NCBI RefSeq assembly: GCF_030384885.1
Contig: NZ_CP128613.1
Source: Escherichia coli
GTDB taxonomy: Bacteria > Pseudomonadota > Gammaproteobacteria > Enterobacterales > Enterobacteriaceae
DNA length: 64,000 bases
Strand: one strand, 5' to 3'
Shown in pieces: positions 26,474-33,488 of this stretch. A program made the translations under genes and the position numbers. How positions within the stretch are numbered: the stretch's first letter is position 1; each line of letters opens with the position of its first letter. The notes below the pieces were generated by a model, which did not search any database, was not told the DNA's origin, and saw only the letters and a list, made by a program, of their open reading frames with translations.

Positions 26474-28402
26474 ATGCCTGTTATAACTCTTCCTGATGGC
26501 AGCCAACGCCATTACGACCACGCTGTAAGCCCCATGGATGTTGCGCTGGACATTGGTCCAGGTCTGGCGAAAGCCTGTATCGCAGGGCGCGTTAATGGTG
26601 AACTGGTTGATGCTTGCGATCTGATTGAAAACGACGCACAACTGTCGATCATTACCGCCAAAGACGAAGAAGGTCTGGAGATCATTCGTCACTCCTGTGC
26701 GCACCTGTTAGGGCACGCGATTAAACAACTTTGGCCGCATACCAAAATGGCAATCGGCCCGGTTATTGACAACGGTTTTTATTACGACGTTGATCTTGAC
26801 CGCACGTTAACCCAGGAAGATGTCGAAGCACTCGAGAAGCGGATGCATGAGCTTGCTGAGAAAAACTACGACGTCATTAAAAAGAAAGTCAGCTGGCACG
26901 AAGCGCGTGAAACTTTCGCCAACCGTGGGGAGAGCTACAAAGTCTCCATTCTTGACGAAAACATCGCCCATGATGACAAGCCAGGTCTGTACTTCCATGA
27001 AGAATATGTCGACATGTGCCGCGGTCCGCACGTACCGAACATGCGTTTCTGCCATCATTTCAAACTGATGAAAACGGCAGGGGCTTACTGGCGTGGCGAC
27101 AGCAACAACAAAATGTTGCAACGTATTTACGGTACGGCGTGGGCAGACAAAAAAGCGCTAAACGCTTACCTGCAGCGCCTGGAAGAAGCCGCGAAACGCG
27201 ACCACCGTAAAATCGGTAAACAGCTCGACCTGTACCATATGCAGGAAGAAGCGCCGGGTATGGTCTTCTGGCACAACGACGGTTGGACCATCTTCCGTGA
27301 ACTGGAAGTGTTTGTTCGTTCTAAACTGAAAGAGTACCAGTATCAGGAAGTTAAAGGTCCGTTCATGATGGACCGTGTTCTGTGGGAAAAAACCGGTCAC
27401 TGGGACAACTACAAAGATGCAATGTTCACCACGTCTTCTGAGAACCGTGAATACTGCATTAAGCCGATGAACTGCCCGGGTCACGTACAAATTTTCAACC
27501 AGGGGCTGAAGTCTTATCGCGATCTGCCGCTGCGTATGGCCGAGTTTGGTAGCTGCCACCGTAACGAGCCGTCAGGTTCGCTGCATGGCCTGATGCGTGT
27601 ACGTGGTTTTACCCAGGATGACGCGCATATCTTCTGTACTGAAGAACAAATTCGCGATGAAGTTAACGGATGTATCCGTTTAGTCTATGATATGTACAGC
27701 ACTTTTGGCTTCGAGAAGATCGTCGTCAAACTCTCCACTCGTCCTGAAAAACGTATTGGCAGCGACGAAATGTGGGATCGTGCTGAGGCGGACCTGGCAG
27801 TTGCGCTGGAAGAAAACAACATCCCGTTTGAATATCAACTGGGTGAAGGCGCTTTCTACGGTCCGAAAATTGAATTTACCCTGTATGACTGCCTCGATCG
27901 TGCATGGCAGTGCGGTACAGTACAGCTGGACTTCTCCTTGCCGTCTCGTCTGAGCGCCTCCTATGTGGGTGAAGACAACGAGCGTAAGGTACCGGTAATG
28001 ATTCACCGCGCAATTCTGGGGTCGATGGAACGTTTCATCGGTATCCTGACTGAAGAATTCGCTGGTTTCTTCCCGACCTGGCTTGCGCCGGTTCAGGTTG
28101 TTATCATGAATATTACCGATTCACAGTCTGAATACGTTAACGAATTGACGCAAAAACTATCAAATGCGGGCATTCGTGTTAAAGCAGACTTGAGAAATGA
28201 GAAGATTGGCTTTAAAATCCGCGAGCACACTTTGCGTCGCGTCCCATATATGCTGGTCTGTGGTGATAAAGAGGTGGAATCAGGCAAAGTTGCCGTTCGC
28301 ACCCGCCGTGGTAAAGACCTGGGAAGCATGGACGTAAATGAAGTGATCGAGAAGCTGCAACAAGAGATTCGCAGCCGCAGTCTTAAACAATTGGAGGAAT
28401 AA
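26474..28402 (+). CDS. thrS: Threonine--tRNA ligase
   Basis: 642-aa [27 protein letters not shown]... with N-terminal TGS domain and class II synthetase motifs. Confidence 0.97.
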
Positions 28403-28948
<546 letters not shown>

Positions 28949-29020
28949 GGCCTTCAAGTAGCACTGTCTGTGGAGCCTTTGGGCTTCACAGGCATTGTTC
29001 GCCTTTGTTTCGTTTATTAA

Positions 29021-29242
<222 letters not shown>

Positions 29243-29268
29243 GCCGTTAACGTTTTTTAACTTTTTAA

Positions 29269-29652
<384 letters not shown>

Positions 29653-29662
29653 GCCAGTTGAA

Positions 29663-29690
29663 AGAGGGAGCTAGTCTCCCTCTTTTCGTT
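29663..29690 (+). terminator. Rho-independent terminator after rplT
   Basis: Stem agaggga/tccctct followed by tttt. Confidence 0.55.
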
Positions 29691-29774
29691 TCAACGCCAT
29701 CAAAACATTGACTTTTATCGCCGTAGCCTTTTCAATAAAGGTCTTTTGAAAAGTACCAAAAGGTAACGCAAGCA

Positions 29775-29819
29775 ATGAATGCTGCTATTTTCCGCTTCTT
29801 TTTTTACTTTAGCACCTGA
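29775..29819 (+). CDS. pheM: pheST attenuator leader peptide (14 aa, 5 Phe)
   Basis: atgaatgctgctattttccgcttctttttttactttagcacctga encodes [14 protein letters not shown]; too short for the ORF track. Confidence 0.85.
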
Positions 29820-29867
29820 CTCCAGGAGGCTAGCGCGTGAGAAGAGAAACGGAAAACAGCGCCTGAA

Positions 29868-29891
29868 AGCCTCCCAGTGGAGGCTTTTTTT
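29868..29891 (+). terminator. pheST attenuator terminator
   Basis: Hairpin agcctcc-cagt-ggaggct followed by a 7-T run, 50 nt downstream of the pheM stop. Confidence 0.75.
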
Positions 29892-30060
29892 GTATGCGCG
29901 TTTTGAAAAATAAAAAGCCTGTCTCATCAGGCGTAATTGTCGCAGCCAGTCTGGGCACGGCCAGCGCGGAGAAACCGGAGCGTACTTAAGTACGTGAGGA
30001 TTTCGAGCACTGCCCGGGACCAAAATGGCAAGTAAAATAGCCTGATGGGATAGGCTCTAA

Positions 30061-31086
<1,026 letters not shown>

Positions 31087-31097
31087 GGCAGGAATAG

Positions 31098-33488
<2,391 letters not shown>

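Follow-up and report, generated by a model that had tools for sequence, protein, structure and literature searches.

The attenuator that precedes pheST in Escherichia coli, pheM, is already known and long described; NCBI annotates it automatically and Rfam models it. The original descriptions are said to be those of Fayat, Springer and colleagues, in the Journal of Molecular Biology between 1983 and 1985. More recently, Gordon et al. (2017; PMC5371410), citing Trudel et al. (1984), took pheM as a known attenuation leader, found that RNase III cuts within the attenuator structure in vitro and that the downstream message decays faster in the wild type than in an rnc mutant, and proposed that the leader is turned over by RNase III. 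Reporter fusions of the pheM attenuator were employed in a 2013 study (PMC3831192), and pheM is among the EcoCyc leader peptides listed by Adams et al. (2021; PMC7815308). The in vivo response to tRNA-Phe charging has its basis in this literature (PMC5371410, citing Trudel et al., 1984; the reporter fusions of PMC3831192).

In the trpL leader, a protector helix (1:2), an antiterminator (2:3) and a terminator (3:4) are alternatives, the position of the ribosome on the leader ORF decides among them, and RNA that is not translated terminates. The pheM leader is built in the same way, but its regulatory codons are for Phe rather than Trp and the two share no sequence similarity. The pheL leader, like pheM, has a short Phe-rich ORF, a long helix that joins the ORF to a downstream segment, and the same logic, and both leaders score above the Rfam threshold. 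It differs from pheM in its peptide, in its locus and in what lies downstream, which is the biosynthetic gene pheA rather than the synthetase genes pheST.

Here we analyze one such locus in a 64,000-nucleotide stretch of E. coli DNA (the window). There is very little doubt that it is the pheM leader, with a ribosome-mediated, trp-type transcription attenuator of the pheST(-ihfA) operon. A sequence-only reading of the window had called it the pheM leader and the Phe-tRNA attenuator of pheST, and Rfam, the annotation, the peptide and a conserved predicted switch all support that call. We provide exact coordinates for every pairing, find the same switch logic throughout the 78 testable Enterobacterales loci in our sample, and distinguish the attenuator proper, whose end is at 29891, from the polymorphic repeat filling most of the distance to pheS.

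Results and discussion

The locus and its annotation

The Rfam Phe_leader model (RF01859) matches the window at 29769–29893 over its full length (model positions 1–125) with a score of 74.4 bits (E = 3e-12), above the curated gathering score of 55 bits. Weak Rfam matches nearby (sX9, mir-5444, Dicty Class I RNA and a reverse-strand Phe_leader) fell far under their gathering scores and were dismissed. From 29640 to 30110 the window is 100% identical to E. coli 2013C-4282, in which NCBI (PGAP) has placed the labels 'pheM: pheST operon leader peptide PheM' and 'Phe leader region', and in which the annotated gene order is thrS-infC-rpmI-rplT-pheM-pheS-pheT-ihfA (Table 1).

The pheM gene of K-12 MG1655 (b1715) has the same peptide, the same gene order and the same 283-nt gap between pheM and pheS as the window. 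A gapless comparison with K-12 reveals eight substitutions in 470 nt, six of which sit in an inserted palindromic element rather than in the attenuator; the sole difference inside the attenuator RNA is at 29820, which is C in the window and A in K-12. Of 5426 complete E. coli genomes, all but one (5425) carry the promoter and leader segment as a single copy at ≥95% identity. The window is therefore chromosomal E. coli DNA.

Table 1. Features of the pheM-pheST locus, given as positions in the window
Feature	Position	Strand	Details
thrS	26474-28402		NCBI annotation of E. coli 2013C-4282
infC	28406-28948		NCBI annotation of E. coli 2013C-4282
rpmI	29045-29242		NCBI annotation of E. coli 2013C-4282
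rplT	29296-29652		NCBI annotation of E. coli 2013C-4282
rplT intrinsic terminator	29661-29689	+	upstream boundary, outside the attenuator; stem 29661-29670/29676-29685, then UUUUCGU
Putative sigma-70 promoter, pheM-pheST	29708-29736	+	-35 TTGACT 29708-29713, 17-nt spacer, -10 TTCAAT 29731-29736
Leader ribosome-binding region	29760-29774	+	AAGGUAACGCAAGCA; Shine-Dalgarno-like AAGG 29760-29763
Phe leader region	29769-29893		NCBI annotation of E. coli 2013C-4282
pheM leader ORF	29775-29819	+	14 codons + stop; ATG 29775, TGA 29817-29819
Helix 1:2 (anti-antiterminator, 'protector')	29781-29862	+	codons 3-11 (29781-29807) paired with 29837-29862
Paired RNA 3' ends	29794 and 29851	+	Term-seq; K-12 1799251 (two conditions) and K-12 1799194 (one condition)
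Antiterminator	29820-29882	+	29820-29838 paired with 29859-29882
Predicted intrinsic terminator	29865-29891	+	stem 29865-29874/29879-29888, loop CAGU, T-run 29885-29891
Polymorphic insertion, ~145 bp	about 29911-30056	.	carries a palindrome; downstream of the attenuator and not needed for it
pheS Shine-Dalgarno and start	30093-30105	+	GAGGA 30093-30097, ATG 30103-30105; sequence and annotation
pheS	30103-31086		NCBI annotation of E. coli 2013C-4282
pheT	31101-33488		NCBI annotation of E. coli 2013C-4282
ihfA	from 33493		NCBI annotation of E. coli 2013C-4282

Leader peptide, putative promoter and terminator

Translation of 29775–29819 agrees with the 14-codon ORF and the five Phe in 14 that had been claimed for it, and the leader codons had not been misread. 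The Phe codons are codons 6, 8, 9, 10 and 12 (UUC at 29790 and 29796; UUU at 29799, 29802 and 29808). The Shine-Dalgarno-like AAGG stands 11 nt 5' of the pheM ATG, and the ribosome-binding region to which it belongs is almost invariant across Enterobacterales and unpaired in predicted leader-restricted folds. Further upstream, a 77-sequence alignment shows just two conserved blocks in the interval from the rplT terminator to the leader, TTGAC and TTCAAT(A), which probably mark the sigma-70 promoter of pheM-pheST. A consensus promoter scan did not report this putative promoter because its −10 element lacks an A at position 2.

Downstream of the ORF, the GC-rich hairpin and the run of seven T described in the sequence-only reading are both present at 29865–29891, with exactly seven T at 29885–29891. 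The G+C core of the hairpin (GCCUCC 29869–29874 with GGAGGC 29879–29884, closing a 4-nt loop) lies 49 nt from the stop codon, within 1 nt of the distance of 50 nt that had been given, and A-U and G-U pairs lengthen the stem to 29865–29888 (10 bp, −14.9 kcal/mol). The predicted probability of the terminator in the free full-length RNA is 1.00.

A predicted ribosome-dependent switch

The minimum-free-energy fold of the free leader RNA consists of helix 1:2 followed by the terminator (−52.2 kcal/mol), with a folding-energy z of −6.06 and an equally stable fold in none of 200 shuffles. An apical hairpin of helix 1:2 (29809–29833) hides parts of the 5' strand of the antiterminator (29823–29826 and 29829–29833). 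This strand is located apically in the helix and just past the stop codon, such that a ribosome at the stop codon would mask it directly; this placement is a feature in which pheM differs from trpL.

The core of the antiterminator is formed by GGAGGCU (29825–29831) and AGCCUCC (29868–29874), the latter being the 5' arm of the terminator. Since both structures use 29868–29874, they are mutually exclusive. Pairing can extend beyond the core, as CUCCAGGAGGCU (29820–29831) is complementary to AGCCUCC(CAG)UGGAG (29868–29882), reaching into both terminator arms, and it extends inward by the pairing of 29832–29838 with 29859–29864. A 12-bp version of the antiterminator has an energy of −17.0 kcal/mol, versus −14.9 kcal/mol for the terminator. 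Folding the region was the check proposed with the sequence-only reading, and it yields the expected pair of mutually exclusive structures, which in our models switch with the position of the ribosome.

The ribosome was modeled as an unpaired mask extending from −18 to +12 nt of the first A-site base, an assumed footprint. We adopted a co-transcriptional model, in which the nascent RNA ends at 29876, before the 3' arm of the terminator exists, because equilibrium folding of the full-length RNA gave no antitermination for stalls on the first Phe codons. In this nascent RNA, the predicted probability of the antiterminator is 0.00 for free RNA and for a ribosome on codons 1–4, 0.58 for codon 5, 0.93–0.97 for codons 6–13 and 0.67 for codon 14. 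With the ribosome at the stop codon it is again 0.00, because the footprint covers the 5' strand of the antiterminator. An attenuation mechanism calls for just this pattern, in which RNA that is not translated also terminates. In free RNA the antiterminator can be forced only at a cost of +19.9 kcal/mol; with the ribosome on codons 10–12 the cost is about 0 to −2.6 kcal/mol. In the full-length RNA at equilibrium, stalls on the first four Phe codons leave the terminator ahead by 2–4 kcal/mol, and stalls on the distal Phe and Tyr codons bring the two folds roughly level. Given that equilibrium still favors the terminator for early Phe stalls, antitermination must be kinetic in these models; we infer that the antiterminator would form before the 3' arm of the terminator is made, which fits the classical model.

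The mechanism we propose is as follows. The transcript would probably start ~30 nt upstream of 29775 and carry the 14-codon ORF with its five Phe codons. When charged tRNA-Phe is plentiful, the ribosome would reach the UGA at 29817, where it would either cover the 5' strand of the antiterminator or leave and allow helix 1:2 (29781–29862) to re-form; with both outcomes the terminator (29865–29891) would fold and RNA polymerase would halt before pheS. When charged tRNA-Phe is scarce, the ribosome would stall on the Phe codons (29790–29810) and block helix 1:2, leaving GGAGGCU (29825–29831) to pair with the emerging 5' arm of the terminator, AGCCUCC (29868–29874). The antiterminator would then pre-empt the terminator, and pheS-pheT would be transcribed. 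RNA from an untranslated leader would terminate. For where the promoter lies, for transcriptional pausing and for turnover of the leader by RNase III, this account draws on the literature or on inference.

Conservation across Enterobacterales

A scan for PheS in one genome per species returned 80 loci, 78 of which had enough upstream DNA to be testable. These loci are from Escherichia, Salmonella, Citrobacter, Enterobacter, Erwinia, Pantoea, Dickeya, Pectobacterium, Yersinia, Serratia, Rahnella, Hafnia and Edwardsiella, among others. The leader ORF is kept in frame, start and stop in all 78 testable loci, with a near invariant core (FRFFFYFS), and 46–51 nt separate the stop codon from the terminator arm throughout. 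Among 76 distinct leaders from ~40 genera, the median predicted probability of the antiterminator is 0.00 for free RNA, 0.97–0.99 for the Phe-stalled leader and 0.00 with the ribosome at the stop codon, and the terminator probability in the free full-length RNA is 1.00. A few of these leaders (e.g., L019, L031, L036 and L072) depart from the pattern.

To align the structures we used a pheM covariance model built from 14 sequences, with a final alignment threshold of E ≤ 1e-11 that removed reverse-strand hairpin echoes. The model matches each of 78 sources (73 distinct sequences) once, over its full length and on the plus strand, and the 64-kb window only once. In the resulting alignment, 94.2% of cells are paired in the terminated fold, and nine pairs of this fold change on both sides, compared to 3.9 in shuffles (0/500 as high) and 0–3 in slid controls. 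For helix 1, 94% of cells are paired and 4 of 24 pairs change on both sides (78-match alignment). Changes in the terminator that look compensatory (AU to GC, GC to CG and CG to UA; 4 of 9 pairs) proved to be a one-column register shift in six rows. A shift along an invariant stem of this kind was not counted as covariation; the genuine covariation is that of helix 1:2.

The terminator core (GCCUCC/GGAGGC) does not vary in 77 of the 78 sequences. In the antiterminator, the core can pair in 97.4% of cells, A-to-G changes being accommodated as G-U pairs, and conservation falls to about 60–70% of cells in the outer 5 bp (CUCCA:UGGAG). Neither the antiterminator nor the terminator covaries independently in the 78-match alignment, because the strand common to both, the 5' arm of the terminator, is invariant. 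RNAalifold applied to a MAFFT alignment returned a weak, mixed consensus, since loops of differing length displace the terminator arm and the RNA has two competing conformations, and the covariance-model alignment was used in its place.

RNA 3' ends and RNase III

Term-seq tables for K-12 (Adams et al., 2021; PMC7815308 supplements) were mapped to the window by the gapless K-12 comparison. A strong 3' end at K-12 position 1799356 corresponds to 29689, at the rplT terminator. The two ends within the leader (Table 1) lie on opposite strands of helix 1:2, where G29794 pairs with C29850 and C29793 with G29851. This offset leaves 2-nt 3' overhangs on both products, which is the geometry of RNase III, and we interpret the two ends as an RNase III cut site, in agreement with Gordon et al. 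(2017). The curated K-12 Term-seq lists contain no 3' end at the pheM T-run (about 1799154), and in this respect one published dataset does not directly support termination there. The missing end may reflect a fast RNase III cut, which would leave a terminator fragment of ~40 nt, too short to capture.

Taken with the cleavage of the pheM attenuator in vitro and the slower decay of the downstream message when rnc is mutated (PMC5371410), the paired ends with RNase III geometry and the unlisted T-run end raise the possibility that the leader acts mainly after transcription, helix 1:2 being an RNase III entry site that sets the stability of pheST mRNA or releases a functional RNA, with attenuation secondary. 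We consider this very unlikely. Attenuation does not conflict with cleavage and probably precedes it, turnover of the leader is what the authors of that study propose (PMC5371410), and an RNase III site alone leaves unexplained the conserved Phe codons, the conserved distance of 46–51 nt from stop codon to terminator and the conserved switch.

Other identities for the locus

The hairpin and T-run could also be a constitutive terminator or insulator after the rplT operon, next to a Phe-rich mini-ORF that arose by chance in a T-rich stretch. T-rich sequence readily yields Phe codons, and operon ends are expected to carry terminator-like sites, of which a scan of the region finds four, versus a shuffle mean of 1.8. 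However, rplT already has its own terminator (29661–29689), with a strong Term-seq 3' end, and the ORF is preserved in frame, start, stop and FRFFFYFS core at all 78 Enterobacterales loci. Moreover, when the 46-nt linker was shuffled with dinucleotides preserved, 0 of 400 shuffles reached the native amplitude of the ribosome-dependent switch (native 0.79; shuffle maximum 0.75, median 0.01), a control scored as switch amplitude relative to native, the native leader failing the first thresholds on a stricter 'any partner' measure. With these results and an Rfam E-value of 3e-12, a plain terminator beside a chance ORF is scarcely credible.

The matching Rfam model would by itself allow the locus to be pheL, the leader of pheA, or a duplicate of it: RF01859 is centered on pheL, which in K-12 scores 132 bits versus 74 bits for the locus in the window. 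The two leaders align over their whole length, their sequences are only partly alike, and the pheL terminator (AAGGCCUCCC...GGGGGCCUUUUUU) resembles that of pheM (AAAGCCUCCC...GGAGGCUUUUUUU). Yet the peptide is the annotated PheM and not PheL, the locus lies between rplT and pheS whereas pheL lies elsewhere, between raiA and pheA, and the pheM covariance model scores 142 bits on the window versus 36 bits on pheL. Because of the rplT-pheM-pheS position, the PheM peptide and label in both 2013C-4282 and K-12, and these covariance-model scores, we assign the locus to pheM and give pheL almost no chance; pheL and pheM are related attenuators under one Rfam family, and the locus in the window is of the pheM type.

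Aminoacyl-tRNA synthetase genes of Firmicutes use T-boxes, and the neighboring thrS is under protein-mediated translational control, but direct tRNA sensing by a T-box riboswitch, or binding of the synthetase to its own leader, in either case with no translating ribosome, can be set aside with near certainty here, as T-box and other riboswitch families have no Rfam match in 28300–30400 even at E ≤ 1, the leader has a translatable ORF, a Shine-Dalgarno-like AAGG and five codons for the cognate amino acid, and the alternative pairings are predicted to depend on the position of the ribosome.

The spacer between the attenuator and pheS

The sequence-only reading placed the pheS start 211 nt beyond the terminator. 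That distance is correct (29892–30102, with the ATG at 30103), but a polymorphic repeat insertion accounts for 145 of these nucleotides, and the ancestral spacing is ~66 nt. The insertion holds a 141-nt imperfect palindrome (29916–30056) with 17-nt terminal inverted repeats, which as RNA is predicted to fold into one hairpin (−68.5 kcal/mol, z = −6.8). A Term-seq 3' end at 30058, found in two conditions and not Rho-dependent by the Rho-score column, lies 2 nt past the foot of the hairpin and 45 nt upstream of pheS (K-12).

The insertion is present at the pheM-pheS site in 4781 of 5426 E. coli genomes (88%). E. coli TUM14771 and the GTDB E. coli representative lack it and have 138 nt rather than 283 nt between pheM and pheS, and most Enterobacteriaceae have a spacer of 40–66 nt after the T-run. 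The family to which it belongs occupies a median of 5 places per E. coli genome, and another copy is located between nuoL and nuoM.

The E. coli insertion resembles ERIC (IRU) elements in that it is an imperfect palindrome of similar size (141 nt, versus 127 bp for ERIC), occupies an intergenic spacer that is transcribed and shares a related motif, GGAGCGTACTTAAGTACGTGA, at its center. Its identification as ERIC was rejected: it has 18 mismatches in 44 to the ERIC core (the 44 nt of the standard ERIC1R/ERIC2 primer pair), where the best of 300 shuffles has 19, and local alignment to ERIC covers only the central motif of 20–21 nt, the arms failing to align. Clear ERIC copies, with 5–9 mismatches to the 44-nt core, are found in the spacer between the T-run and pheS in Citrobacter (41 nt past the T-run, minus orientation) and Yersinia (152 nt past the T-run, plus orientation). 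The insertions in Escherichia, Citrobacter and Yersinia are independent.

Because of these independent insertions, the stretch after the attenuator may be a recurrent landing site for ERIC-type elements. We doubt, but consider worth stating, a joint reading in which it is such a site and the palindrome hairpin, in read-through pheST mRNA, also acts as a second checkpoint that does not depend on tRNA sensing. If the checkpoint were real, strains with and without the palindromic element would differ in PheRS expression. Our search of the literature for the spacer repeat returned no sequence or description for comparison; a candidate name for the E. coli repeat is 'RSA'. The repeat insertions, the RNase III-type ends and the absent T-run end could interest researchers of small palindromic repeats and of mRNA processing.

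At the downstream edge of the spacer, GAGGAAAACC-ATG at the pheS start is common to related spacers. The ORF tool opens pheS upstream of its annotated start of 30103, at an in-frame ATG (30091) that overlaps the Shine-Dalgarno sequence.

Palindromic repeats in the spacer behind the attenuator

Palindromic repeats are recurrently inserted in the spacer between the pheM attenuator and pheS. In the window, the inserted stretch contains an imperfect palindrome of 141 nt whose terminal inverted repeats are 17 nt long; the RNA hairpin of the insert has a folding energy of -68.5 kcal/mol. Among complete E. coli genomes, 4781 of the 5426 have the insert; examples without it are TUM14771 and the representative of E. 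coli in GTDB. It is a member of a repeat family with about five copies per genome, for which 'RSA' is a candidate name; a further copy sits between nuoL and nuoM.

Among the other Enterobacterales PheS loci (one genome per species, L numbers), clear ERIC elements occupy the spacer between the pheM terminator and pheS (approximately locus positions 1130-1300) in Citrobacter (L009, L015, L016, L031) and Yersinia (L066, L067, L068). These copies differ from the 44-nt ERIC core by 5-9 mismatches, lie in opposite orientations in the two genera, and the spacer elements differ in their offset from the T-run (41 vs 152 nt). Three loci (L011, L013, L014) carry a shorter version with the centre deleted, the version in L068 holds an internal insertion, and Hafnia (L063) has a different long insert again.

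Across the 470 nt compared, eight substitutions separate the window from K-12 MG1655, six of which fall in the palindromic insert. The attenuator holds only one (C in the window, A in K-12, at 29820), at the outer end of the antiterminator, where conservation is poor.

Features of the pheM-pheS region, in window positions
Feature	Position	Description
rplT intrinsic terminator	29661-29689	10-bp stem then UUUUCGU
Substitutions vs K-12 MG1655	29751, 29820, 29932-30011	
Polymorphic insertion	29911-30056	~145 bp; attenuator terminator on one side, pheS on the other

Transcript 3' ends and reverse-strand matches

Two 3' ends in the published K-12 Term-seq tables (1799251 and 1799194; PMC7815308) map to window positions 29794 and 29851, on opposite strands of the long leader helix 1:2 with a stagger of 2 nt, which we interpret as RNase III geometry. 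The two ends agree with a report that RNase III cuts the pheM attenuator in vitro (PMC5371410). The curated K-12 3' ends include none at the terminator T-run, 29885-29891 (PMC7815308). The strongest 3' end of the region maps to 29689, in the rplT terminator, an element that the terminator scan missed because its T-run is interrupted.

A further end, Rho-independent and present in two conditions, maps to 30058 (K-12 1798987), 2 nt beyond the foot of the insert's hairpin and 45 nt before the start codon of pheS. No U-run follows. In read-through pheST mRNA, this end could mark the point where an exonuclease halts or a site of processing.

The Rfam Phe_leader model (RF01859) and our pheM-specific covariance model each give weak minus-strand matches (22-35 bits) over the long helix (29784-29860), and most other loci have equivalent matches at the corresponding place. 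We rejected a second element on the minus strand; the matches are echoes of a near-palindromic hairpin.

Start codons of neighbouring genes

The infC gene starts with ATT (28406-28408), which three bases separate from the stop codon of thrS (TAA, 28400-28402). This AUU is the known unusual start codon of IF3, and the ORF tool therefore begins infC no earlier than a GTG inside the gene, at 28514. Upstream of the annotated pheS start (30103) lies another ATG in the same frame (30091), which overlaps the Shine-Dalgarno sequence (ATGAGGAAAACCATG; site 30091-30105), so that mechanical ORF calling lengthens pheS by four codons.
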